Below are positions 13,047 to 62,900 of a stretch of 64,000 nucleotides of DNA, one piece after another. The notes under the pieces are model-generated. The model was not told the DNA's origin. It searched no databases and worked only from the letters and a program-made list of their open reading frames with translations. Position 1 is the stretch's first letter. Each line of letters opens with the position of its first letter. The translations under genes and the position numbers were made by a program. Source of the stretch: Heterodontus francisci (taxonomy: Eukaryota); NCBI RefSeq assembly GCF_036365525.1, contig NC_090416.1, positions 14,480,945 to 14,544,944 of the forward strand, read 5' to 3'.

Positions 13047-16000
13047 ATGCTGGGGCGGCAAGTGTTGGTGCTGAGTGAGTGTGGAGTTTATCATCATCTC
13101 TTCGCCGGCTTGTTTTTTCCCTGTGAGGTTTTTTTTGTTGTTGAATTAATCCTTGTTTTTTTTAATGAATCCCTTCCAGGTCAGAATGTGAAGCGGGAGT
13201 CGGGCCGCAAAGTCCAGCAGGGCAACATCAACGCGGCCAAGGTGAGGCCGCCCGCACTACTCGAGTTCCGAGGCTGCATCGTGGGCCTAGGCCTGGAGGG
13301 AAGGCTGTCTGAGGGTGTTAGAGTGGGACTCGGTGCCAATTGGGGGAATAACGGGACTCGGTGCCAATTGGGGGGATAAAGGGACTCGGTGCCAATTGGG
13401 GGGATAACGGGACTCGGTGCCAATTGGGGGGATAAAGGAACTCGGTGCCAATTGGGGGGATAACGGGACTCGGTGCCAATTGGGGGGATAACGGGACTCG
13501 GTGCCAATTGGGGGGATAAAGGGACTCGGTGCCAATTGGGGGGATAACGGGACTCGGTGCCAATTGGGGGGATAACGGGACTCGGTGCCAATTGGGGGGA
13601 TAACGGGACTCGGTGCCAATTGGGGGGATAAAGGGACTCGGTGCCAATTGGGGGGATAAAGGAACTCGGTGCCAATTGGGGGGATAACGGGACTCGGTGC
13701 CAATTGGGGGGATAACGGGACTCGGTGCCAATTGGGGGGATAACGGGACTCTGTGCCAATTGGGGGGATAAAGGGACTCGGTGCCAATTGGGGGGATAAC
13801 GGGACTCTGTGCCAATTGGGGGGATAAAGGAACTCGGTGCCAATTGGGGGGATAACGGGACTCTGTGCCAATTGGGGGGATAAAGGGACTCGGTGCCAAT
13901 TGGGGGGATAACGGGACTCGGTGCCAATTGGGGGGATAAAGGGACTCGGTGCCAATTGGGGGGATAACGGGACTCGGTGCCAATTGGGGGAATAAAGGAA
14001 CTCGGTGCCAATTGGGGGGATAAAGGAACTCGGTGCCAATTGGGGGGATAAAGGGACTCGGTGCCAATTGGGGGGATAACGGGACTCGGTGCCAATTGGG
14101 GGAATAAAGGAACTCGGTGCCAATTGGGGGGATAAAGGAACTCGGTGCCAATTGGGGGGATAAAGGGACTCGGTGCCAATTGGGGGGATAACGGGACTCG
14201 GTGCCAATTGGGGGGATAAAGGAACTCGGTGCCAATTGGGGGGATAACGGGACTCGGTGCCAATTGGGGGGATAAAGGAACTCGGTGCCAATTGGGGAGA
14301 TAAAGGAACTCGGTGCCAATTGGGGGGATAACGGGACTCGGTGCCAATTGGGGGGATAAAGGAACTCGGTGCCAATTGGGGGAATAAAGGGACTCGGTGC
14401 CAATTGGGGGGATAAAGGGACTCGGTGCCAATTGGGGGGATAACGGGACTCGGTGCCAATTGGGGGGATAACGGGACTCGGTGCCAATTGGGGGGATAAA
14501 GGGACTCGGTGCCAATTGGGGGGATAACGGGACTCGGTGCCAATTGGGGGAATAAAGGAACTCGGTGCCAATTGGGGGGATAAAGGAACTCGGTGCCAAT
14601 TGGGGGGATAAAGGGACTCGGTGCCAATTGGGGGGATAACGGGACTCGGTGCCAATTGGGGGGATAAAGGAACTCGGTGCCAATTGGGGGGATAACGGGA
14701 CTCGGTGCCAATTGGGGGGATAAAGGAACTCGGTGCCAATTGGGGAGATAAAGGAACTCGGTGCCAATTGGGGGGATAACGGGACTCGGTGCCAATTGGG
14801 GGGATAAAGGAACTCGGTGCCAATTGGGGGAATAAAGGGACTCGGTGCCAATTGGGGGGATAAAGGGACTCGGTGCCAATTGGGGAGATAAAGGAACTCG
14901 GTGCCAATTGGGGGGATAAAGGAACTCGGTGCCAATTGGGGGGATAACGGGACTCGGTGCCAATTGGGGGGATAAAGGGACTCGGTGCCAATTGGGGGAA
15001 TAAAGGAACTCGGTGCCAATTGGGGGGATAAAGGAACTCGGTGCCAATTGGGGGGATAAAGGGACTCGGTGCCAATTGGGGGGATAACGGGACTCGGTGC
15101 CAATTGGGGGGATAAAGGGACTCGGTGCCAATTGGGGAGATAAAGGAACTCGGTGCCAATTGGGGGGATAAAGGAACTCGGTGCCAATTGGGGGGATAAA
15201 GGGACTCGGTGCCAATTGGGGGGATAAAGGGACTCGGTGCCAATTGGGGAGATAAAGGAACTCGGTGCCAATTGGGGGGATAAAGGAACTCGGTGCCAAT
15301 TGGGGGGATAACGGGACTCGGTGCCAATTGGGGGGATAAAGGGACTCGGTGCCAATTGGGGAGATAAAGGAACTCGGTGCCAATTGGGGGGATAAAGGGA
15401 CTCGGTGCCAATTGGGGGGATAAAGGAACTCGGTGCCAATTGGGGAGATAAAGGAACTCGGTGCCAATTGGGGGGATAAAGGAACTCGGTGCCAATTGGG
15501 GGGATAAAGGGACTCGGTGCCAATTGGGGGGATAAAGGGACTCGGTGCCAATTGGGGAGATAAAGGAACTCGGTGCCAATTGGGGGGATAAAGGAACTCG
15601 GTGCCAATTGGGGGGATAACGGGACTCGGTGCCAATTGGGGAGATAAAGGAACTCGGTGCCAATTGGGGGGATAAAGGAACTCGGTGCCAATTGGGGAGA
15701 TAACGGGACTCGGTGCCAATTGGGGAGATAAAGGAACTCGGTGCCAATTGGGGAGATAACGGGACTCGGTGCCAATTGGGGAGATAAAGGAACTCGGTGC
15801 CAATTGGGGAGATAACGGGACTCGGTGCCAATTGGGGAGATAAAGGAACTCGGTGCCAATTGGGGGAATAAAGGAACTCGGTGCCAATTGGGGAGATAAC
15901 GGGACTCGGTGCCAATTGGGGAGATAAAGGAACTCGGTGCCAATTGGGGGAATAAAGGAACTCGGTGCCAATTGGGGGAATAAAGGAACTCGGTGCCAAT

Positions 16001-19000
16001 TGGGGGGATAATGGGACTCGGTGCCAATTGGGGGGATAAAGGGACTCGGTGCCAATTGGGGGGATAACGGGACTCGGTGCCAATTGGGGAGATAACGGGA
16101 CTCGGTGCCAATTGGGGAGATAACGGGACTCGGTGCCAATTGGGGAGATAACGGGACTCGGTGCCAATTGGGGGGATAAAGGAACTCGGTGCCAATTGGG
16201 GGAATAAAGGAACTCGGTGCCAGTTGGGGGGATAATGGGACTCGGTGCCAATTGGGGAGATAACGGGACTCGGTGCCAATTGGGGAGATAAAGGAACTCG
16301 GTGCCAATTGGGGGGATAAAGGAACTCGGTGCCAATTGGGGGAATAAAGGAACTCGGTGCCAGTTGGGGGGATAATGGGACTCGGTGCCAATTGGGGAGA
16401 TAACGGGACTCGGTGCCAATTGGGGAGATAAAGGAACTCGGTGCCAATTGGGGGGATAAAGGAACTCGGTGCCAATTGGGGAGATAAAGGAACTCGGTGC
16501 CAATTGGGGAGATAACGGGACTCGGTGCCAATTGGGGGGATAAAGGGACTCGGTGCCAGTTGGGGGGATAATGGGACTCGGTGCCAATTGGGGAGATAAC
16601 GGGACTCGGTGCCAATTGGGGAGATAAAGGGACTCGGTGCCAGTTGGGGGGATAATGGGACTCGGTGCCAATTGGGGGGATAACGGGACTCGGTGCCAAT
16701 TGGGGGGATAAAGGAACTCGGTGCCAATTGGGGGAATAAAGGGACTCGGTGCCAGTTGGGGGGATAATGGGACTCGGTGCCAATTGGGGGGATAAAGGGA
16801 CTCGGTGCCAATTGGGGGGCTAAAGGGACTCGGTGCCAGTTGGGGGGCTAAAGGGACTCGGTGCCAATTGGGGGGCTAAAGGGACTCGGTGCCAATTGGG
16901 GGGATAAAGGAACTCGGTGCCAATTGGGGGGGGATAAAGGAACTCGGTGCCAGTTGGGGGGATAAAGGAACTCGGTGCCAATTGGGGGGATAAAGGAACT
17001 CGGTGCCAATTGGGGGGATAGCGGGACTCGGTGCCAATTGGAGGGCTAAAGGGACTCAGTGCCAATTGGGGAGATAACGGGACTCGGTGCCAATTGGGGA
17101 GATAACGGGACTCGGTGCCAATTGGGGGGATAACGGGACTCGGTGCCAATTGGAGGGCTAAAGGGACTCGGTGCCAATTGGGGAGATAACGGGACTCGGT
17201 GCCAATTGGGGGGATAAAGGGACTCGGTGCCAATTGGGGGGATAAAGGGACTCGGTGCCAATTGGAGGGCTAAAGGGACTCTGTGCCAATTGGGGAGATA
17301 ACGGGACTCGGTGCCAATTGGGGGGATAAAGGGACTCGGTGCCAATTGGAGGGCTAAAGGGACTCGGTGCCAATTGGGGAGATAACGGGACTCGGTGCCA
17401 ATTGGGGGGATAAAGGGACTCGGTGCCAATTGGGGGGATAAAGGGACTCGGTGCCAATTGGAGGGCTAAAGGGACTCTGTGCCAATTGGGGGGATAACGG
17501 GACTCTGTGCCAATTGGGGGGATAACGGGACTCGGTGCCAATTGGGGGGATAACGGGACTCTGTGCCAATTGGGGGGATAAAGGGACTCGGTGCCAATTG
17601 GAGGGCTAAAGGGACTCGGTGCCAATTGGGGAGATAACGGGACTCGGTGCCAATTGGGGGGATAAAGGGACTCGGTGCCAATTGGGGGGATAAAGGGACT
17701 CGGTGCCAATTGGAGGGCTAAAGGGACTCTGTGCCAATTGGGGGGATAACGGGACTCTGTGCCAATTGGGGGGATAACGGGACTCGGTGCCAATTGGGGG
17801 GATAACGGGACTCTGTGCCAATTGGGGGGATAACGGGACTCTGTGCCAATTGGAGGGCTAAAGGGACTCGGTGCCGTTTGGGAGGTGAATAACGGGACTC
17901 GGTGCCGTTTGGGAGGTGAATAACGGGAGTCGGTGCCGTTTGGGAGGTGAATAACGGGACTCGGTGTTTGTGGGATAACGGGACTCGGTGCCGTTTGGGA
18001 GGTGAATAACGGGACTCGGTGCCGTTTGGGAGGTGAATAACGGGACTCGGTGCCGTTTGGGAGGTGAATAACGGGACTCGGTGCCGTTTGGTAGGTGAAT
18101 AACGGGACTCGGTGCCGTTTGGGAGCTGAATAACGGGACTCGGTGCCGTTTGGGAGGTGAATAACGGGACTCGGTGCCGTTTGGGAGATGAATAACGGGA
18201 CTCGGTGCCGTTTGGGAGGTGAATAACGGGACTCGGTGCCGTTTTGGAAGAGCACATCAGCTTTCGACATGACAGGGCTGCTTTGTGTGTGATTCCCCTG
18301 TCTTTGACTAGCCTGCGTCAAGGTTGACGCGTCATTAATGGCCAATTGGCAAAAGCCAACTAGTGGAGCTGAAGGTATACCCCAATAAAGCAGCTGTAAA
18401 AATATTCTTCAGTAGCTTTCCAGATCTGTGCTTATCCGCATTCTTTTGTGGTTGTATCTTTCAGACAATCGCGGATGTTATTCGCACATGCCTGGGCCCA
18501 AGAGCGATGATGAAGGTACAGGAAGTATTGGACTGGATTTGTGGGGTGTGGTGCAGCAAAGTACTGAACTGTAGGGACTTGAGTTTAAAGAAAATTAAGT
18601 CGGAGAAAGAGTGAAAGTTAGGCAGTGCTTAATCATCTAAGACCAGTGGAATTAGGACAGTAATTGAAACGCCTATAGTTTATCTCTGTTCTCTTAAGTG
18701 TGTGCGATATTGTAGAAAGTAACTTGTACACTGGACTGCTAAGGTTACAAGTTCCTTCCTTTCGCCTGCCATCTGCAAACTGGTTCAATTGGGTGAGTGT
18801 ATAAAATTGAAGCTAATGTGGTATCATTTACTCCCTAGATGTTGCTGGATCCCATGGGTGGCATCGTTATGACAAATGATGGCAATGCCATCCTGCGAGA
18901 GGTAGGTGGAATCTGTCTGTAATTTAACCCGTGTCAGCATTCGGTCCGGAGTTGGGTAGACTGCTGCTCACTAGACTCAAAAATACCAGACAAATTAATT

Positions 19001-41000: not shown

Positions 41001-44000
41001 CGAGACAGATTTCAGACTGTTTGTATGTGAGGCAACTGGAGCCCAGTAAATCGTTGACCTGACCTGAGGGAATTATTGCTACACTCTCCGCATCTTTCCC
41101 AGCCCAAGTGCGCATTCTTTATGCGGGGAATTCAACCCTGGCGGGCCTCGCACCCCTCCCTATCTCTGTCACCTCCTCCAGCCCCGACACCCCTCCCTAT
41201 CTCTGTCACCTCCTCCAGCCCCTACACCCCTCCCTATCTCTGTCACCTCCTCCAGCCCCTACAACCCTCCGAGATCTTTGCCCATCCCCCCCAGTTCCCA
41301 TCGCTCCACCATTGGCGGCCGTGCCTTCAGCTGCCTGGGGGCCCTAAGCTCTGGAATTCCCTCCCTAAACCTCTCCCTCCCCCTCTCTTCCTTTAAGACG
41401 CTCCTTAAAACCGACCTCTTTGACCGAGCTTTTGGTCGCCTGTCCCTGATATCTTCTGACGTGGCTCGGGGTTAAATTTTTGTCTGATTGCGTTCCCATG
41501 ATGCATTGTTGTTTTTGTACTCTGTTCAAGGCGCTATATAAATGCAAGTTTTTTTTTCCGTCTGCAGTCCCGCCTCTGAGCAGAGTGGGAGGGTCACTGA
41601 TCGGCGAACAGGAGTCTTGTCTGTTACGTTCCCTGTTTTTGTTTTTCCCCCCTTCTCCACCCCCCCCCCCCCCCCCCCAACAAAACCCAATGGCACTGAG
41701 GCCAATTAGTATCCCCCTGAGAGGCAGAGACGTGTGACCTGCTGGCGACTGCAGTCCAGCTGCAATCTGTGTGATCAGTGCAGGCTGGAACACGAGCAGG
41801 CCATTCAGCCCATCTAGCCACTGAGGATCTTTGACTGGGAAAGGGACGTGGCCCAGATGAGAGGGGTGGGTTATGTTCAGCACATGGAGAAATGTCTTTT
41901 TAAAGAAACGTTTTCTTCTGCCCTGTCAGGTGTTCGAATACAATGATGTGAATGACACAGCCGACCTCTCTCGGACACCGGCCAGCAGCTTCTACCCGAC
42001 CTATTGGCTGGAGGACTTCACCTGGGACGACGTCAACGCCACCCTGAACCGGAGCCGGCTGACCGCCCAGCTCCGGGGCCGCAATGCCACCGGCCAGCTA
42101 TTTGGCAACGGCAGCATCACATTCCGGGTATGTGTGTTGAGGGAGGGGTTTGTTTCCGTAGAAACTGAGCAGCTCCCCTGCTGGCTCTGTTGGCTGACGG
42201 TTGCCCGCTGGCTGGCTGGGATCCGGCAGTAAAGCCCCAGCATCCCAGGCACGAGGCTGAATCTGTGATGCCCCCGCATGCCGAATAGTTATGTCCCAGG
42301 CTCTAATGAATGGGACAGAAGAGGTTACACTGTATCTAACCCCGTGCTGTACCTGTCCTGGGAGTGTTTGATGGGGGACAGTGTAGAGGGAGCTTTACTC
42401 TGTATCTAACCCCGTGCTGTACCTGTCCTGGGAGTGTTTGATGGGGACAGTGTAGAGGGAGCTTTACTCTGTATCTAACCCCCATGCTGTACCTGTCCTG
42501 GGAGTGTTTGATGGGGGACAGTGTAGAGGGAGCTTTACTCTGTATCTAACCCCCGTGCTGTACCTGTCCTGGGAGTGTTTGATGTGGGACAGTGTAGAGG
42601 GAGCTTTACTCTGTATCTAACCCCCGTGCTGTACCTGTCCTGGGAGTGTTTGATGTGGGCAGTGTAGAGGGAGCTTTACTCTGTATCTAACCCCCGTGCT
42701 GTACCTGTCCTGGGAGTGTTTGATGGGGACAGTGTAGAGGGAGCTTTACTCTGTATCTAACCCCCGTGCTGTACCTGTCCTGGGAGTGTTTGATAAAAGC
42801 AGTTGTTTTTTGTTGTTTCTGGAGCCCATGGTAACTGACTCGTGATTCCTGTTCCCCGTTTTGAATTCTTTTAGATCGCAGCTTTCGAAGACTCCGGCCG
42901 CGATTCTTTCCTGCCTCACCTCCTGCACACCGCCAACAGCTCGAAGCTGGAGTTTGTAATCGATGGGGTGGAGCCTCGAGGGAACCAGTCCCGCTTTGCC
43001 CTCGAGCTGATTGTGCTGGAGGCGGAGGGGGTGCAGCGAGAGCTGAGGGTGTGCCACACCATTGACGATGAATACACTCCCAGCATCTTCCAGGTACCCG
43101 ATCGGCCAAGGGCTCCTGCCCTTTGCCCAGTGCAGGTTAAGCGCAAGGTCGCGTGTAGTTGTGATGCCGTCTGTGGCAGAATAGCACCCCCCCCCCCGCC
43201 ACTGAGTCTCCTCAAGTACGCCTTGGGAATCGGAGCACTCGATCTGTGACTGTCCGTGCCTCCCGAGTGCAAAATGGGAAGTCAGTCTAAAGTAGCAAAG
43301 CAATGAGAGGATTTTTTTTTTTCATTTCTATAGCGCCTGTCACAATCTCAGGCTGGCCCATGGCGCTTTGCAGCCAATGAGGCACAGTCACTGTCCTAAT
43401 GCAGGAAACCTGGCAGCCATTCTGAGCACAGCAAGCTCCCGCAAACAGAAGTCAAAATGACCGCATCATCTGTTTTAGTGCTGGTGGTTGAGGGTCAAAT
43501 ATTGTCCTGGACTGTCCCTGCTCTTCGAGACAGTAGCTGTGGGATCCTTTACACCCAGAGGGCAGACGGGGCCCTAGTTTAGTGTCACATGTGAAAGACG
43601 GCGCCTCCGACAGTGCAGCACTCCCTCAGTACTGGCACTGGGAGTGTCGGCCTGGATCTTTTTGCTGATGCCACTGGAGTAGGGTTACCGAGAGCTGCAC
43701 GCTGAAGCACGGCTGATACTTTGATAAGGGGCATGTTTGTATGGCATTGATGGATTGACGAACTCTGAACTTTGCCCCCCCTCCAATCAGATGGACAAGC
43801 TGGTGGCGAAGGTGCGTAACGAGAGCGGGGTCACGAGCTTTCTGCAGTGGAAACCGGTCGCCTACAGCTCCCCGCAGGCAGCCCGGACCAACTCCGTGGC
43901 GACCCAGCACTACGGCCCCAGGCTAGGCCGCAACCAGAGCCTACCGGCCTCCAGCATCGCCTACGCCTTCTTCGGGCCTGTCCTGCACGGGGGATCCCGC

Positions 44001-45001: not shown

Positions 45002-45205
45002 GCAACTCGAGGGAACTGACCGATAAAACGCACTTTAATGCTGGAGAATTTCCATTTCAGTGTGATATCTCCTGCTGTTCAGAACCGTGGTCGTCGTTTC
45101 AACAGTGGTTTTCCGGTACATTCTGGGGTCTGGGGCGTTGGCACTGAAATTTTACGACATTTAAAATGTAATTTTTTTTTTTCTTCCCAACAGTCTTCTC
45201 CCTTG

Positions 45206-45340
45206 AGGGACAGTGTAGAGGGAGCTTTACTCTGTATCTAACCCCGTACTGTATCTGCCCTGGGAGTGTTTGATGGGGGACAATGTAGAGGGAGCTTTAC
45301 TCTGTATCTAACCCCCGTGCTGTACCTGTCCTGGGAATGT
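45206..45340 (+). repeat. Two units of the same about 70-bp repeat, downstream of the GLMP stop
   Basis: GGGACAGTGTAGAGGGAGCTTTACTCTGTATCTAACCCCG occurs twice. Confidence 0.9.
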
Positions 45341-51754: not shown

Positions 51755-53695
51755 GAAATTCGAGCCCACAAACCAGGCCAACACTCCCAGTGCCAGTACT
51801 GAGGGAGTGTCGCACTGTCGGAGGGTCAGTACTGAGGGAGTGCTGCACTGTCAGAGGGTCAGTACTGAGGGAGTGCCGCACTGTCAGGGGGTCAGTACTG
51901 AGGGAGCGCCGCACTGTCGGTGGGTCAGTACTGAGGGAGTGTCGCACTGTCAGAGGGTCAGTACTGAGGGAGTGCCGCACTGTCGGAGGGTCAGTACTGA
52001 GGGAGTGCTGCACTGTCGGAGGGTCAGTACTGAGGGAGCGCTGCACTGTCGGAGGGTCAGTACTGAGGGAGTGCCGCACTGTCGGAGGGTCAATATTGAG
52101 GGAGCACCGCACTGTCAGAGGGTCAGTACTGAGGGAATGCCGCACTGTCGGAGGGTCAATATTGAGGGAGCACCGCACTGTCAGAGGGTCAGTACTGAGG
52201 GAGTGCCGCACTGTCGGAGGGTCAGTACTGAGGGAGCGCCGTACTGTCAGAGGGTCAGTACAGAGGGAGTGCCGCACTGTCAGAGGGTCAGTACAGAGGG
52301 AGTGCCGCACTGTCGGTGGGTCAGTACTGAGGGAGTGCCGCACTGTCAGAGGGTCAGTACTGAGGGAGTGCCGCACTGTCGGAGGGTCAGTACTGAGGGA
52401 GTGCCGCACTGTCGGAGGGTCAGTACTGAGGGAGCGCCGTACTGTCAGAGGGTCAGTACAGAGGGAGTGCCGCACTGTCAGAGGGTCAGTACAGAGGGAG
52501 TGCCGCACTGTCGGTGGGTCAGTACTGAGGGAGTGCTGCACTGTCAGAGTGTCAGTACTGAGGGAGTGCTGCACTGTCGGAGTGTCAGTACTGAGGGAGT
52601 GCTGCACTATCGTAGTGTCAGTACTGAGGGAGTGCTGCACTGTCGGAGGGTCAGTATTCAGCGAGCTCTGCACTGTCTGAGTGTCAGTACTGAGGGAGTG
52701 CTGCACTGTCGGAGGGTCAGTACTGAGGGAGTGCTGCACTGTTGGAGGGTCAGTAATGAGGGAGCGCCACACTGTCGGAGGGTCAGTCCTGAGGGAGTGC
52801 TGCACTGTTGGAGGGTCATTAATGAGGGAGCGCCGCACTGTCGGAGGGTCAGTGCAGAGGGAGCGCCGCACTGTCAGAGGGTCAGTACTGAGGGAGTGCC
52901 GCACTGTCGGAGGGTCAGTACAGAGGGAGCGCCGCACTGTCAGAGGGTCAGTACTGAGGGAGTGCCGCACTGTCGGAGGGTCAGTACTGAGGGCGCGCCG
53001 CACTGTCGGAGGGTCAGTACTGAGGGAGTGCCGCACTGTTGGAGGGTCACTGCAGAGGGAGCGCCGCACTGTCAGAGGGTCAGTACTGAGGGAGTGCCGC
53101 ACTGTCAGAGGGTCAGTACTGAGGGAGTGCTGCACTGTTGGAGGGTCAGTACTGTGAGTGTGCTGCACTGTCGGAGGGTCAGTATTCAGCGAGCACTGCA
53201 CTGTCTGAGTGTCAGTACTGAGGGAGTGCCGCACTGTCGGAGGGTCAGTACTGAGGGAGTGCCGCACTGTTGGAGGGTCAGTAATGAGGGAGCGCCACAG
53301 TGTCGGAGGGTCAGCACTGAGGGAGTGCTGCACTGTTGGAGGGTCAGTAATGAGGGAGCGCTGCACTGTCGGAGGGTCAGTACTGAGTGAGTGCCGCACC
53401 GTCGGAGGTGCTTTCTTTCGGATGAGACGCCTCATCTGCCCCTCTCAGGTGGATGTAAAAGATCCCATGGCCGCGATTGGAAGAACAGCGGGGGTGGGAG
53501 GGGGGTGGTGAGTTCACCCTGGGTCCAATATTTGTCCCTCAACCAACATCACTGTACAGACGATCTGTGTCGTAATCACAACGCTGTTTGTGGGATCTTG
53601 CTGTGCACCAATTGGCTGCCACGCTTCCTACATTGAAGCAGTGACTCCACTCGGGGCGACCTCAGGTGGCGAAAGGCGCTATAGAAATGCAAGTT
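51755..53695 (+). mobile_element. Deu-domain SINE (SacSINE1-like) with an internal 33-bp tandem expansion
   Basis: SINE sequence precedes the array and resumes in register at 53401 (GTCGGAGGTG..TCTTTCGGATGAGACG..GGATGTAAAAGATCCCATGG) through to the L2-like tail GCGCTATAGAAATGCAAG. Confidence 0.85.
51794..53408 (+). repeat. 33-bp minisatellite (about 49 units)
   Basis: Unit GTACTGAGGGAGTGCCGCACTGTCGGAGGGTCA with point variants. Confidence 0.98.
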
Positions 53696-53977: not shown

Positions 53978-56900
53978 TCAGCCCCAGAACCTCTGGCGTG
54001 GGCCTGAGGCCTTCTCCTGTCCTTCTGTCTCGCTGGCTGAGGTGGCAAACATCTTATCGGGAGCCAGGATGAACATGTAGCAGAGGTTGCAGACAAGTAG
54101 GCCGAGGACGGGGAAGAAGGTTAGGCCGTAACCGAAACCTCGGAAAGTGCTGCTGATGGCGAAGGTCAGCCAGTAAATCAACCTGGGGATGACGGAGAGT
54201 AAAGAGGGTTCCATTAATCCACACTCCACAACAGTGACCACATGTTCCCCTTCACTGACGTTGACTCATTCAGCCCTGTTCCATTCCACTTCTCTGGGAA
54301 TTTTGTAGCGATAGACTCATAGAAAGTTTATGGCACAGAAAGAGGCCACTTGGCCCATCGCGTCTGTGCCGGCCGGGGAAAAAAAAAAGGAGCCACCCGG
54401 CCTAATCCCACTGGATACCAGGAATGTCAGTGCTGGGAAAGGAAGATTCCCATTATCCTGTGAAACACTCCCAGCATCGGTTAGATACAGAGTAAATCTC
54501 CCTCCACACTGTCCCCATCAAACACTCCCAGGACAGGTACAGCACTGGGATTGGCCGGTCAATTTGGAGCACTTCCTGCCTGCAATCAGGGGGAGAGCTG
54601 CACCTGTGCTGCAGCAACTGCAGAGTGGAGAGTGGAATAACTGCAAAGAGGTGACTGTTACATGGAGACAGCTGCATTTACTGAGGAACTGTTGCACTTT
54701 TTCAAGGATTAAGAAGACCTGCAAGTCATTTTGGAGAGGTGGATGTTGGAGCACCAGAGAACTGTTGGTTGTTTGGACTGTTGGGGGAGGGAGGAGGCAC
54801 CGGAAGATCCAGGGGTGGGGCTGCCAAATTCTATAGGGAGCCCTTGTATTTGGTCTTGTGTTTATCTGCCATCCTGCACAAAAGGGGCTCCCTCCCCACC
54901 CCCAACTGTGTGGCTCGGGACAGCTGGAGCTGCCCGGCTGAAGACTAGCTTTATACAACAACAGAAAAGGGAGAGAACCGGGCGGCTCTAGCCGACCCGG
55001 GCGAAGAGCCCTCCCCTAACTGGAAGATTGAATTGTAGACTCTGCAGGAAGGTGCTCCAACCACCAAGTGAACTGCAACATCCTCGCAGCTGTTCTCTCT
55101 CTTCCATCACTTGGCCACCTATCCTCTCCTCTCCTTGTCCTTTTCAACCCTATCCTCCTCTACTCCCATCCCCACCTCCCCCATCATATTGTTTGTGTTA
55201 AAGAAAACTGTCGTGTGCTTTGTTTCTTGGGGGTGGGCGTAGCTCTGCGACCCCATGGCAAGCCCCTCTTCGCCGGTGGCGGGGCCTTCCCGTTTATATG
55301 CTGCTGCGGCTGCTGCAGCTGCACCTGTTGCCCCGTCACCGTTTGCTTTATTAACATCAAAGCATGGAGTCAAGAGCTACGTCCACCCGAACATGACTAT
55401 CGAGGCATGTGTGAAAGCAATGGCCGAGGTTGTCAGCCCTTCGGCCATTGTTGCAGCCTCTAAAATGTACGGGAAGGCAGTGTTATTTCTGAGGACCGAG
55501 CGGGCGGTGTCCCTGGCTCTGAGCAAGGGGCTCACCGTGGGCGGGACCTTTCTGCCAGTGGACCCCCTGGAGGCCACTGCGCAAAGGCTCATTCTATCCA
55601 ATGTCCCGCCCTTCATTCCTGGTGAGCTCCTCCTTCCCCACCTGCACCATTTGGGGGAGGTAAAGACGGGACTCACCCCAGTCCCGCTCGGTCTTCGGGA
55701 GAACAGCCTCCGACACGTGTACTCCTTCCGCCGCCAGTTATTCATGCAGCTGGCGCGGGAGGAGGTGACAGAGGGCCACTTTAATGTAGAATTCCAGGGG
55801 ACGGCCTACCGCGTCTTCTGGACCTTGGACGGGGTGCGGTGCCATGTCTGTAAGGGGGTGGGGCATGTTCGTAAGAACTGCCCCAACCTCCCGGCTGCCA
55901 ACTCCAACTCGGCGTCCCAGGGTGGCGACGCTGCACCTCCTCCCACCCCCCCTACACCACCACCAGATACCATTCAGTCGGTACCGGTTTTCACGGCCTC
56001 CGGCAGGGAGGGGGGTGACCATCCAAGTGGAAGGAAGGCGCGGAGGAGAAATAAACATCGAGAGGCGCGTCCCCTGGACACCGTGACACTACCCGAGTCT
56101 GAGCTCAGCACAAAGCCCGATCTCGGGAAGTCAACTTGCCCCAGGGCTGGGCTCAGGCCCAGGGTGAATAAAAAAAAGGAGAGTGTGGAGGTGGAGGCCT
56201 CTGATGACATGGAGGTCTCTGAGCCTCTGCGCCCTGGTGGGAAAAAGAGGTGAAGGCACCCCTCCACAGAGGTAATGAGGGGCCCTGAGGCGCAGGGCCC
56301 ATCTGTTGGAGGGGAGCTGTCTCCTGTCTCGGGTCCCCAGGTTTCCCCTACCGCTACCACCAAGGCTACAAAGTCCGGGCAGGAGCTCCCTATTCCTCAG
56401 GATGGAGGGGAGGGGAAGGCCCCGGTACATGAGGCCCCTCCTGAAGGAGTAAGTGGGGCCCTGCTTGTGGTGGGGGAGCCTGGGGACTCCGCCCATTCTG
56501 CCACTGCTACTGGGTCGGGTGCCCTGAGTGAAGGGGAGGGTGAGGCCCCAGAGGGTCGGCCCTCCCAGCCGGAGTCCACCGCCAACCAGGAGACACCCGA
56601 CCCAGTTATAACTGAGAATGCTGCCCCATCTGCTGGGCCTGTGGATGCTGACGGAGCGGGAGATGGCCTCCTCTCTCCGCCTCCAGTCTCGGCTCCGGCT
56701 GGTTTTCCGGAGTCGGGAACTTCTGTCTCCCCTGGACCACTCATTGGCCTGGGGACGGAGGTGGAGCGGGGTCCTGAACCGCTGGTGCCTACAGGCTCCA
56801 GTTTCACAATAGAACCCAGAGAGGACTCCTCCGCCATCGATCCTGGGGGTGGGATCGTGACGGAGGCGGGACCAGCTGGCGCGGCCGGGACGTCCGCCCC

Positions 56901-59900
56901 ACAGTGTGTAGTGGGCGTGTCGGCCGCTGGCGGTGACGACCCGGAGGAGGATGGGGATTCAGTGCGGGGCACGGAGGGTGATCTTGATTCCATCGCCAGT
57001 GAGGTGGTGGAGTCCCTCGTGCCTCCCACTGAATCTCCTCTCAACTCCGGGATTTCCTCGCGGTTTGCAGGGGCTGCCGCAATAAAGTTCAGCTGGCCCT
57101 CGACCGCTGGTCAAATCTGGCGCTGATCATCCAGTCCGTCCGTGCCGCCCTTAAGATAGCGGGCAAGCGCGCGGGCGTGAAACTGGTTGAGAGGCACCGT
57201 TTTAATGTGTTCCTCAATGGGTTGCTGGGGGAGTGGAGGGCCAGGTGCACTTCCACTCCCTCCTCACAGTGAGGTGTTGGTGACGGGTTTTAAGTACCTT
57301 TGACATGAAGATAACCATAGCCAGCCTCAACATCAACGGCAGCAGAGGGGCTCACCGCAGATTTCACAATCTCTCAGTCCTTAGGGAAGGGAGATACGCG
57401 GTGAGCTTTCTGCAGGAAACCCACACCGTTCCGGGAGACGAAGCTACCTGGCTCCTGGAGTGGCAGGGTGGGGTCTACATGAGTCACCTCACCCCTATTT
57501 CTAGTGGGGTGGCAATCTTGTTGGCCCCGACTTTTCAGCCGGAGATCTTGGGGGTCAAGGAGCTAGTGCCGGGCCGCTTGCTCCACCTCGCCGTTCGCCT
57601 GGGTAGCGTGCCGCTCCACTTTGTGAACGTGTACGCGCCCAGGCCCGGCGCGTTGCAAGCGCGCTTCTTTGAAGAAGTGTCCGCTCTCTTGAGCTCCATC
57701 GATAGCGGCGAGTGCATCATCCTCGGGGGGGATTTTAACTGCATCCTCGAGGTGGGGGATCGCTCCGGTCCCCAGCGCGGCCAAGCGTCGGTGGAGAAGT
57801 TGAGGGGACTGATCAGCTCCCTTAACTTGGTGGACGTCTGGCGGAATCTCCATCCCGACTCCAGCGCCTTCACGTGGAGGTCTGGAGGAGGAGGGTCGCG
57901 AATCGACCGCCTCTACATTTCGCAGGCGTACGCCTCCCGCGTCTCGGCAGCCTCCATGCGGCTGGTGCCGTGCTCGGACCACCGCCTGGTGTGGGCGGAG
58001 TTTACTCCGCTCCGCACGCGAGCGGGGTCCGCGTACTGGCACTTTAACAACCGGCTGCTGGAGGACGAGCGATTTCGGGACTCGTTCTGTCGATTCTGGG
58101 CCGACTGGAGAAGGAAGCAGGGGGGCTTCCCCTCCTTGAGGCTATGGTGGGATGTGGGCAAGACTCACATCCGCGTCTTCTGTCAGGAGTACGCGAAGGG
58201 GTCGACCAAGAGGCGGGAAACCGAGATCGGGCGCCTTGAGAGGGAGGTGCTCGACTTGGAGTCCCGCCTCGGTCATGCCGTCGTGGACCCGGCCCTGTGG
58301 CAGGCGTACAAAGAGAAGAAGGGCGCGCTGAGGGACCTGCAGCTCATAGGGTTCCTCAGCGCGTACGTGAGGTCGCGTATCCAGATCCTGGAAGATTTGG
58401 ACTGCGCCTCACCCTTCTTCTACTCGCTGGAAAAATGGCGGGGGGTCCGTAAGCAGCTCGTCGAGCTGCTGGCCGACGATGGATCCTCCACCACGGATCC
58501 GGAGGGAATGGGCCTCCTGGTCCGTAATTATTACAGTGCGTTGTTCTCTCCGGATCCGTCCAGCGAGGATGCGCGCAGAGTTTTGTGGGAGGACCTGCCG
58601 CAGGTCAGCCCGGTGGGCGCCGAAGGATTGTAGGCTCCGCTCACGTTGGCGGAGCTGACTGGCGCCCTCCACCAGCTCTCGAGGGGCAAATCCCCAGGGC
58701 TGGATGGGTTGACCGTGGAGTTCCTCAGGGCGTTCTGGGACGTCCTGGGGGACGATTACGCGCGGGTCCTGGGGGAAAGCCTGGCGACCGGGGAGATGCC
58801 CCTCTCGTGGCGCAGGGCGGTCATCGTCCTGCTGCCGAAGAGGGGCGATCTCCGCCTGCTTAAAAACTGGCGTCCGGTCTCCCTCCTCAGCACGGATTAT
58901 AAGATCTTTGCCCGGGCTATGTCTACTCGCCTGGGCTCCGTGCTGGCCCACATGATCCACCCCGACCAGTCCTACACGGTCCCGGGCCGGTCCATCCAGG
59001 ACAACATCCACCTGGTCCGGGACCTGATCCATCTTTCCCAGAGGACTGGTCAGTCGGTCGCCTTTCTCTCCCTCGATCAGGAGAAGGCGTTCGACAGGGT
59101 GGATCACGATTACCTTTTCGGGACTCTGCGCGCTTTCGGACTCGGGCCGCATTTTGTGGCCCAGGTCCGACTTTTATACGCCGCCGCAGAGTGTCTAGTC
59201 AAAGTTAACGGGTCCTTGACGGCGCCCCTTCGATTTGGGAGAGGAGTGCGTCAGGGATGCCCCATGTCCGGCCAATTGTATACCATCTGCGTGGAGCCCT
59301 TCCTGTGCCTGCTTCGCAGGAGGTTGACGGGATTGGCTCTGCGCGAGCCGGCCATGCGGGTCGTCCTCACGGCTTACGCCGACGACGTGCTCCTCGCAAT
59401 CACAGATCCCGTTGACTTGCGGAGGATGCGCGTCTGCCAGCAGACCTTTTCTGCCGCGTCCTCCGCGAGGATCAATTGGGAGAAATGTTCCGGACTCCTG
59501 GTTGGTCCGTGGCGGGTGGACTCCCTGCCGGAGGAGATGACACCTTTTGCGTGGAGCACCACGCACCTCCTCTATCTGGGAGTCCACCTTAGCCCCGCTG
59601 AGGAAGCCTGGCCGGCAAACTGGCAGGAGTTGGAGGCGAAAGTCACCGCTCGGCTGGGGCACTGGACAGGACTGCTCCGAGTGCTTTCCTACAGGGGCCG
59701 AGCGCTGGTCATAAACCAACTGGTGGCCTCCATGTTGTGGTCCCGGTTGGTCACTTTGGCCCCGCCCCCTGTATTTGCCACCAAGATCCAGAAGAAACTC
59801 GTCGATTTCTTCTGGGGCAAGAGGAAACACTGGGTCTCTGCCGCGGTCCTGAGTCTCCCGATCGAGGAGGGCGGTCAGTCGCTGGTGTGCGTCCGCACCC

Positions 59901-62900
59901 AGGCTGCGACTCTCCGCCTTCGGACCCTGCAGAGATACCTGTACGTCGAGCGTCCTCCCAGATGGTGTGCGCTGGCGACGTATTTTTTCCGCCAGTGTCA
60001 CTGCCTTCAAGACGACACGCAGCTCCCGGTGGAGTCCGTTAGCCGCGCCTCTCTGAGGGAGTTGCCTGTCTTTTACCGGGATCTTTTCCGAGTCTGGAAC
60101 ATGGTCGCCTCCAGTCAGGGCGCTCCCCCGCCGGCGGAGGTGAGCGCCTCGGCTGTCAAGGCGGCCGACTCCGGGGACGGTCCGGCGGGCGGAGGAGTAG
60201 CCGAAACCCCCGGGACGCCCCTCACTGCGGGTGGCGAGGGGGCTCGGGAGTGCGGAGCGATCCCGGCCAAGCTGACTCCCGCTCGGCCGGAACTGCTCAT
60301 CGGACCCAGGCCCCGAAACCCTCCTCGGGAGCCGGTCCCGCACAACCCGAGCCGCCTCTCGGAAATGCCCTCCGTGCCATTCCAATCGGCGCGGAGGGGT
60401 TTACTGTACGGGCTGCTCCTGCACACTCTCCACTTCCTCGCCCTCGTCAGCCGGCCGGACACACCCTGGCGGTCCGCGTTGCCATCTGGCGGCGAGGGGA
60501 AACCCCGATGGAGGTCTCTCTACGCGGGGGTCTTCCCCCTTTACATCGGGGACCTGGGGTGGAGGGTGCTGCACAGAGCAGTCCCGTGCAATAGGCTTTT
60601 AAGTAGGTTCACGGACTCCCAGACCAGCTGTACTTTCTGCGGCCTGGACGAGTCCGTGTTCCACATTTATATGGAGTGTGCGAGGTTGCAGCCCCTCTTT
60701 GAGTATCTGAAGGGGCTGCTCCTCAAATTCTGGCTGCACTTCAGTCCCACGCTCCTGATCTTTGGGCACCCGGTGCGGAGGGGCTCGGGCCGGGAGGAGG
60801 ATCTCCTCGTCGGTCTGCTCCTGGGCCTGGCCAAGGTGGCAATTCACAGGTCCAGGTTGCGGGCCGTCGGGGGGTCCGTCCTCCCCGATTGCCTGCCCCT
60901 CTTCCGCGGTTACGTTCGCGCCCGGGTGTCCCTGGAAAAGGAGCATGCGGTGTCAGCCGGTACGCTTGAGGCCTTCCGCGACCGGTGGGCACCGCCGGGA
61001 CTGGAGTGCATTGTCGACGCCGAGAATGGCATTTTAATTTGAGTTTTTTGTTTATTTATCTGGTTTTAATAAAGTTATTTTAAAACTGTAACTATGTACA
61101 TAAAGGGGGCCTGAGGAATAAAGGCCCCCTCAAGATAAAAAAAACGGGGGTTAGATACAGAGTAAAGCTCCCTCTACACTGTCCCCATCAAACACTCCCA
61201 GGACGGACTGCAGAGAGGAGGACAGAAGGCATTAAAGGGACATCACCAAGGATGACTCACCTCGCAAGGGCGAAGAAGGCAGTGAGGAGCGGAAGAAGCT
61301 TCAGTACCTCCTGAGGGATGTATGTGGAGAGCACGATGAGGTTGATGAGGAAGAGGACAAAGAGGTGGACGGAGTCGGTTACAAAACGCAGGTGGATCTC
61401 CACCTCCTCCTTGCGGGGCGCGAAGGGCTCGAGGGAGGCAGAGCAGCACCTGGCCAAACCGTAGACGATGATACCTGCCAAAGTGGGGAAAGACAAGTGA
61501 CGCGGGTGAAATTACCAAAGGCGCCATGTTAACTGAGCTCGGGCACGAACCGGGGAAGCTCAATCCGAAGTCGCAAAACGTGCTGGCACGGGTCGGCTTT
61601 CCATTCACTCAGTCTCCGGATGCTGGCGAGGCTGGCATTTGTCGCCCTTCCCTAATTGCCCCTTGCGAAGGTGGCGGTGAGCTGCCCCCCCCCCCCCCCC
61701 CACCCCCCTTGAGTCACTGCAGGCCAAGTGGTGTCGGTGCACCCGCAGCGCTGGTAGGGAGGGAGTTCCAGCCTCGCCGGTTTGTTAACTAAAAGAACTG
61801 GATGTTGGTCTGGGTCTGGAGTCACGTATAGGCCCAGACCCGGGTAAGGACAAGCCGGTTTCCTTCCCTAAAGGGGCATTCAGGAACAGCTTTCGCTGAA
61901 ACCCTCAAGAGTCAGTTAGGTTGTGTGGGACTGCAAGTCGCATGTCGGAGGTGGTCGTATTTTTCCCGGCACTCTAGCCATTTCCGACTCTCCAGCGACA
62001 GGATCGCAACGCGTGATCTCCCAATTCCGCCTGCCCCTCCCCGCACCCCCCATCCCAACCCCCCACCCCCAACAACCCAGGGTTCCTGTAACCAGTGTCT
62101 CCCACCCGAGCTCATTCTTTGCCCCATCACTGTGCAGTGCCTCACCTCCCATCGTCTCCCCTTCCTCTTACTCCCGACCGCACGCTGCCCGCCCCTCACC
62201 AAGTACTCCCGTTTAGATCTGCTCAGTGTCACCCTATCAATGCGCCAGAGATCCGCCGGCTAGGACAAAATGGGGCACCGAGGGAGAACGCCGCGCCCCC
62301 TCTTGATGTTACCCTCGCCTCCTTGCTCGCACTGCGTCCCGTTCCGCTGTCACCCCCTCACACTTGCTGACCGACACTGGCTCCCGGTCCGGCAACCCCT
62401 CGATTCTCGAATTTTCAACCTCGTTTTCATGGCCCTCGCCCACCCCCTCCCTATCTCTGTCACCTCCTCCAGCCCCCTACAACCCTCCGAGATCTCTGCA
62501 CTCCTCCAATTCCAGCCTCTTGCACATCCCCCCCCCGATTCCCATCGCTCCACCATTGGCGGCCGTGCCTTCAGCTGCCTGGGGGGCCCTAAACTCTGGA
62601 ATTCTCTCCCGAAAACTCTCCACCTCTCTATTGGGCGTTTGTCCTACAGATTGAGCCTTGGTTCATTCATAGTCCCACTTCCAGCACCAATCTCCCGCAT
62701 CCCCCCCCCGCAAACTTATCTCACACCAGAAGGGGTTGTCTTACCCATTATGATGGGGACGGTTGCAAAGACACTGCATCGGAGGGTGTAAATCATCCGG
62801 ACGGTGAGGTCGGGCATCAGGGGCACGTCGAAGGGCAGGAAGACATAGGCCCCATACAGGAAGCAGGGATAGATGATTAGTGCAGCTGCCATTGCTGCCG

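Follow-up and report, generated by a model that had tools for sequence, protein, structure and literature searches.

It has been reported that retrotransposons of the Tx1 clade insert into particular multicopy sequences. The targets listed by Kojima (2015) are Tx1D, U2, microsatellites, Mariner, Harbinger and long terminal repeat (LTR) elements, with satellites given in the legend of Fig. 3 (PMC4494074); for this and the other papers cited here, our comparisons cover the accessible parts of the text. Within the clade, Kibi and Koshi use microsatellites and Keno uses U2 small nuclear RNA (snRNA) sequences, and the crocodilian families Tx1-Mar and Tx1-9_AMi, as well as unnamed 'Sat' Tx1 families, occupy fixed positions in host repeats and form tandem insertions parted by duplication (PMC4494074). 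Tx1L of Xenopus laevis (YTX2_XENLA), which has two open reading frames (ORFs), an apurinic/apyrimidinic (AP) endonuclease and a reverse transcriptase (RT), is site-specific for a non-genic repeat (PMC4494074, PMC1950540). The element described here resembles these families in the traits just named. It is a 6.6-kb long interspersed nuclear element (LINE) of the Tx1 clade at positions 54546-61144 of a 64-kb stretch of the Heterodontus francisci genome (contig NC_090416.1, positions 14,480,945 to 14,544,944), which as a whole is called the window below, and it lies between the two halves of a unit of a 70-bp minisatellite. It very probably represents a young family that inserts by target-primed reverse transcription (TPRT) at one register, GCA^CGGGG, of this dispersed repeat.

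Insertion at one register of the minisatellite

The left part of the minisatellite array (54463-54545; forward strand, as for all features below unless stated otherwise) ends at the insertion point with GGTACAGCAC, whose last base is 54545. The repeat picks up again in register at 61145, directly after a run of eight A residues (61137-61144), and its right part extends to 61204. An earlier analysis of the letters alone (the sequence-only reading) had described an in-register insertion within a minisatellite of about 70 bp, with junctions at 54545 and 61145, and both the register and the junctions are exactly as it claimed. The window contains 11 units of the 70-bp repeat, compared with 0 in 100 shuffles, and contigs from four public sequencing runs link position 54545 to approximately 61147-61151, which corresponds to the empty site.

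The same preference is observed across the host genome of 6.0 Gb, where genome-wide counts of exact matches avoid score bias. Among 467 exact matches to the heads of the window copy's 5' type, 370 lie directly behind CAGYAC, the left half of the repeat in register, and 28 lie behind an A-run. The first 30 of these heads by position (27 behind the repeat, 3 behind an A-run) and the best 30 of the 5' ends (again 27 and 3) give similar results, and the best 30 of the 3' ends by score, window copy included, continue into the repeat in 22 cases, into a repeat variant in four (near-duplicate loci) and into the head of another element in four. Repeat junctions without any element number 13,315 when only exact, uninterrupted ones are counted; extrapolation raises this to about 35,000, equal to 0.04% of the genome. 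The specificity for the minisatellite proposed by the sequence-only reading is therefore upheld: flanks are neither random nor at the level of repeat abundance, which the 370 of 467 in-register heads exceed by orders of magnitude. Kojima (2015) regards a Tx1 family as target-specific when one sequence type makes up more than 20% of its flanks and independent truncated copies occur at one site (PMC4494074); here, one sequence type precedes 370 of 467 heads.

A position-ordered sample of 81 tails, the first among 847 exact matches (L151, L162, L181 and L116 were classed by hand), comprised 31 full-length copies, 43 truncated copies (20 on target and 23 off target) and 7 unclear cases; 51 of the 81 tails are clearly at the target, and up to 58 may be. 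All 31 full-length copies are at the target, 23 behind the repeat and 8 behind an A-run in a stack. Such stacks are built by re-use of both new junctions as targets. Truncated copies, of which 23 of 43 scorable ones are off target, differ from full-length copies in this respect (Fisher p 1e-7). It should be noted that some sampled loci are segmental duplicates and were counted twice (L017/018/019/022, L052/053, L056/057, L176/177, L186/187). The off-target copies are all short (124-1158 bp, one mis-chained length apart), and the coordinates of 21 of the 23 place them away from the repeat-rich zones at chromosome ends.

The repeat and full-length elements are concentrated in the outer 20 Mb or so of chromosomes, often at one end only, and on small chromosomes. 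At four near-identical loci (L017, L018, L019 and L022), the element tail is followed by a diverged repeat variant, a pattern that suggests mismatch tolerance or a duplicated old insertion. At L121, L148, L174 and L234, unrelated sequence with an A-run occupies the target register; these inserts are possibly other RNAs mobilised in trans.

The RT segments of 29 copies have a median identity of 97.8%, by which measure of sequence divergence the family is young. Among the 31 full-length copies, ORF1 is open in 13, ORF2 in 6 and both in 3. The suggestion that the window copy, once repaired, could be resurrected is beside the point, because 3 of 31 full-length copies already have both frames open. 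The 5' untranslated region (UTR; 54546-55254 in the window copy) and the start of ORF1 exist in several types (8 single-linkage clusters among 32 copies, 5 of them with at least 4 members), joined to ORF2 sequences that are mostly 97-99% identical, and a target-like head is found in all types.

Junction structure and the choice of target

The sequence-only reading reported an overlap of 1-2 nt at the window copy and no ordinary target-site duplication. The overlap is correct for this copy, and full-length copies overlap by only 1-2 nt, but it is not a property of the family; likewise, the lack of a duplication holds only at full-length junctions. Duplications of 11-17 nt (mode 13) accompany the off-target copies; to the left of truncated copies on target, between 0 and about 16 nt of the target's right half are retained, as read by eye. 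A script found duplications at 21 of 39 non-target junctions, a count that includes one spurious case, and the lengths are perhaps 1-2 nt too long. At these 21 sites, A precedes the cut in 18 and G occupies position +3 in 11, a weak echo of GCA^CGGGG. Target duplications, a poly(A) 3' end and 5' truncation are the marks of TPRT present in the family.

The commonest head, CTGGGATTGG, present in 15 of the 31 full-length copies, resembles the right half of the target. Duplications of full-length copies are probably hidden, since the head looks like the target and is itself re-targeted. The use of the head (54545-54555 in the window copy) as an insertion site is observed in the truncated copies L191, L194 and L206, whose duplications are made of head bases. 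At position +2, the G of the target is found in 17 of the 28 heads that follow A-runs, compared with 79 of the 370 that follow the repeat (p 2e-5).

Other junctions show further variation. Inversions at the 5' end, as in L1 twin priming, occur in L007, L191, L005 and L226. Short pieces of element head followed by an A-run are present in L144, L207 and L223, consistent with transcripts reading from one copy into the next. The 3' UTR of many copies contains one to several copies of a unit of about 46 bp with an inverted repeat, and poly(A) begins at differing points within this unit. In L102 (1315-1357), about 40 extra bases separate the duplicated target from the truncated copy; they may be similar to the reverse of the 5' end of 5S rRNA.

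From these junctions, the following course of insertion may be proposed. The AP endonuclease would nick the bottom strand at GCA^CGGGG, and the top strand would be cut about 13 nt further on. In a full-length insertion, the end of the complementary DNA (cDNA) would pair with the target overhang, to which the first 10 bases of the element are similar, and would thereby absorb the duplication; at an off-target site this pairing would be missing, so that only truncated copies would arise. A weak 3' end would let transcripts run into the downstream repeat, and 3' transduction would then plant new target units.

The endonuclease itself has an unusual beta-hairpin loop (57872-57898) of 7 residues, mostly glycine, a length shared by every one of the 27 copies (of 32) in which it is readable; relatives have 11-12 residues. 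Its length equals that of the R1Bm loop in the LR1 chimera 2v0s, the best PDB match, in a gap-free alignment. Because short and glycine loops were reported to be nearly inactive in L1-EN (Repanas 2007; PMC1950540), target recognition in this family may, by analogy, use endonuclease surfaces other than the hairpin loop. The same short, glycine-rich loop is also what would be expected if the endonuclease were fairly relaxed and targeting came mainly from read-through RNA, whose 3' repeat would pair with the nicked target as in R1Bm, or from tethering through ORF1 or chromatin. R1Bm requires downstream target sequence (PMC7265360), and in the present family read-through into the repeat is frequent and the off-target motif is weak. 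However, an A-run of variable length stands between element and repeat at on-target junctions, so that priming begins in poly(A); copies with repeat pieces often land off target; and the heads that follow A-runs are enriched in the target's G. We consider targeting by RNA or tethering unlikely.

Carriage of the repeat to empty sites

In addition to being targeted, the repeat is carried by the element and seeded at empty sites, which the sequence-only reading missed. Pieces of the repeat lie between two A-runs in 8 of the 23 off-target copies by script and in 11 of 23 by eye, with whole target junctions in 2, and in L114 four repeat units lie inside a 14-nt target duplication. As a test set we took all six listed interior arrays on C1 and C2, the two largest chromosomes, chosen without regard to the element. 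An A-run marks the end of all six (in one of them 30 nt past the repeat), an element tail is found at the start of five, and five have a duplication; the 5' end of the sixth is out of view. Carriage reaches about eight repeat units in L213, and L214 consists of about four units and an A-run within a 14-nt duplication, without element sequence. Further cases (L130, L131, L225, L226, L228 and L229) were picked for their A-run and are thus an unfair sample.

Transduction of 3' sequence, in which read-through transcripts bring downstream DNA into new insertions, is described for L1, R1Bm and R7Ag in the SART1Bm paper (PMC7265360). The process observed here is alike in this respect but differs in its cargo, which is the target itself, up to about eight whole units, brought to formerly empty natural sites. 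For Tx1L, no report of target seeding was found in the accessible parts of PMC4494074 and PMC1950540.

A more far-reaching idea is that element and minisatellite form a self-propagating pair, in which planted arrays would be re-targeted and expand, and much of the dispersal of the repeat would have begun as seedings. We regard this as possible but doubtful. In its strongest form, the repeat would owe its entire dispersal to the element family, and erosion would have removed the A-runs and duplications that once marked old seedings. All six interior arrays on C1 and C2 look retrotransposed, and an insertion or A-run junction is present inside 8 of 10 control arrays from chromosome-end zones; nevertheless, the arrays of the end zones begin and end at random phase without A-runs, and the repeat is near-identical in five organisms, so that it may predate the young family. 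This strongest form is, in our judgement, decidedly improbable.

It is important to consider the observations that weigh against insertion by TPRT at a single register and against its extension to the dispersal of the repeat. The specificity is leaky, with 23 of the 81 sampled copies off target, and the off-target sites resemble the target only weakly. It is from the junctions that we infer both target choice by the endonuclease and the cut positions, and at 18 of the 39 non-target junctions the script found no duplication. The G/T state at head position +2 is associated with an internal variant (10 of 79 compared with 34 of 80, p 3e-5), because of which the +2 G is partly inherited and no proof of pairing at each insertion. 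The missing full-length copies off target could reflect selection against long insertions. As for seeding, the left edge of 9 of the 10 control arrays lacks a tail or A-run, and the chromosome-end arrays, which are the great majority, mostly bear no sign of it. In the C13 stack (L223, L243, L244), the interior array L223 has A-runs at both ends and no duplication; it is the candidate for re-targeting of a seeded array, of which no case was demonstrated.

Two other explanations of the site preference fare far worse than TPRT at one register. Random insertion followed by survival only in the repeat-rich chromosome-end zones would agree with the clustering of both element and repeat at the ends of large chromosomes and on small chromosomes, and off-target copies do exist in chromosome interiors, all 23 of them short. 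However, selection could not restrict insertions to a single register and strand within a 70-bp unit: at least 79% are observed in register, whereas a random insertion would fall there with a probability of about 9e-6 across the genome, or 2.6e-4 at the density of the window. The in-register count rules out this combination as the sole cause, making it extremely improbable, and it may still explain the absence of full-length off-target copies. Hitchhiking, in which the copies stem from a single old insertion that multiplied along with the repeat (through segmental duplication or inside a larger mobile unit) or in which the repeat belongs to the element, would fit the few sampled loci that are mutual duplicates, listed above, but has next to no likelihood, being excluded by the 20 of 43 scorable truncated copies that lie at one register, each with its own 5' breakpoint and thus an independent insertion (an argument also used for Tx1-Mar, Tx1-9_AMi and the 'Sat' families; PMC4494074), and by outer flanks that are unrelated beyond the arrays (short shared stretches in only 8 of 703 pairs), to which are added A-runs of varying length, the roughly 13,315 exact junctions without an element and the several 5' types at one site.

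Features of the window copy and place of the family

In the window copy, the ORF1 region (55255-57272, its end set from the length of open copies) is broken by a stop at 56251-56253 and by a frameshifting 13-nt gap near 57043, judged against natural copies (4 of 4 without the gap), and ORF2 (57305-61042) has a premature stop at 58631-58633. The count of about three visible lesions in the sequence-only reading was accurate. ORF1 had no match in the Pfam search; a CCHC zinc-knuckle motif (55840-55881) was read from its translation, and it has two vertebrate protein relatives, from turtle and sturgeon, with 46-47% identity. ORF2 contains, in order, an N-terminal AP-type endonuclease domain whose frame is open and whose catalytic motifs are present (57305-58024; PF03372, E 3.9e-17, with L1-EN relatives in the PDB), an RT domain (58835-59590; PF00078, E 2.4e-38) and a C-terminal zinc-binding region (60509-60682; PF13966, E 2.5e-4, under the curated cutoff). 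The 3' UTR with its 8-nt A-run occupies 61043-61144.

Membership in the Tx1 clade, as first proposed, is supported by the RT tree, by the domain order of ORF2 and by the RT identity of 63% over 439 aa to ORF2 of Xenopus Tx1L, the closest named relative of this region. In a tree of 19 rows with a midpoint root and no L1 outgroup, the element falls in a clade of 5 rows (100/100) with YTX2_XENLA, two turtle proteins and one unnamed protein; teleost proteins lie outside this Tx1L clade, and none was assigned to the names Kibi, Koshi or Keno. With Tx1L, the N-terminal 439 aa share 48% identity and the C-terminal piece 51%. Unlike Tx1L, which targets the Tx1D transposon and has a loop of 11 residues, the family in the shark genome targets a 70-bp tandem minisatellite, has a loop of 7 residues and shows a specificity that is leaky for truncated copies. 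Compared with Kibi, Koshi and Keno, its target unit is complex and 70 bp long. Tx1-Mar and Tx1-9_AMi have other targets, with a preference of 13-90% (SINEU figures; PMC4494074) compared with at least 79% for the heads counted here.

The 70-bp repeat was also found in sequencing runs of five organisms (0.80-0.92 of words present). Four runs (X1, X3, X6 and X9, one of which may be from the source species), mapped on the element, contain the repeat, the empty junction and ORF2 relatives; they barely cover the 5' UTR and show no element-repeat junctions. In RNA data sets the share of words present was 0.20-0.28, apart from one uncertain row at 0.80, and these data gave no evidence of expression. 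Whale shark and Callorhinchus hold Tx1-like repeats (PMC8455134), and the accessible parts of PMC3747384 and PMC9659126 contribute nothing specific.

Elsewhere in the window, the minisatellite forms an uninterrupted array of 6.7 units that ends without an A-run (42325-42794, reverse strand) and a two-unit array with approximate ends (45205-45340, reverse strand). The search for an RNA-gene origin of the repeat found none, with 0 matches in Rfam at E up to 1. A tandem array with a strong G skew, made of about 174 copies of a 28-bp unit, lies at 13325-18240 and closes in a 31-bp variant (17975-18248). A 33-bp tandem array of about 49 copies occupies 51794-53408, and similar units adjoin some element loci (L002, L008, L170 and L204); its unit is presumably like part of a fish short interspersed nuclear element (SINE).

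Our literature search, largely outside subscription papers, found no paper on this family, on this repeat or on a Tx1 element seeding its target. Of the proposal of a candidate new target-specific family, the target specificity stands and the novelty holds only in part, given that satellites are already among the printed Tx1 targets (PMC4494074, Fig. 3 legend). The kind is known; what sets the candidate family apart is the combination of a complex minisatellite target, a target-like head, a short loop and demonstrated seeding. Here an AP-endonuclease family that is both young and well sampled targets a complex 70-bp unit with single-base precision, and its hundreds of on-target and off-target junctions constitute a natural specificity profile for an endonuclease with an unusually short, glycine-rich loop. 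With about a quarter of the sampled copies off target, its appeal as a gene-insertion tool seems smaller than was first suggested. A target-specific element that moves whole copies of its target to empty sites provides a direct route for dispersing a tandem repeat in a natural genome. If element and minisatellite did prove to be a self-propagating pair, the element would be a site-specific retrotransposon with a niche of its own making rather than one borrowed from an array of host genes.

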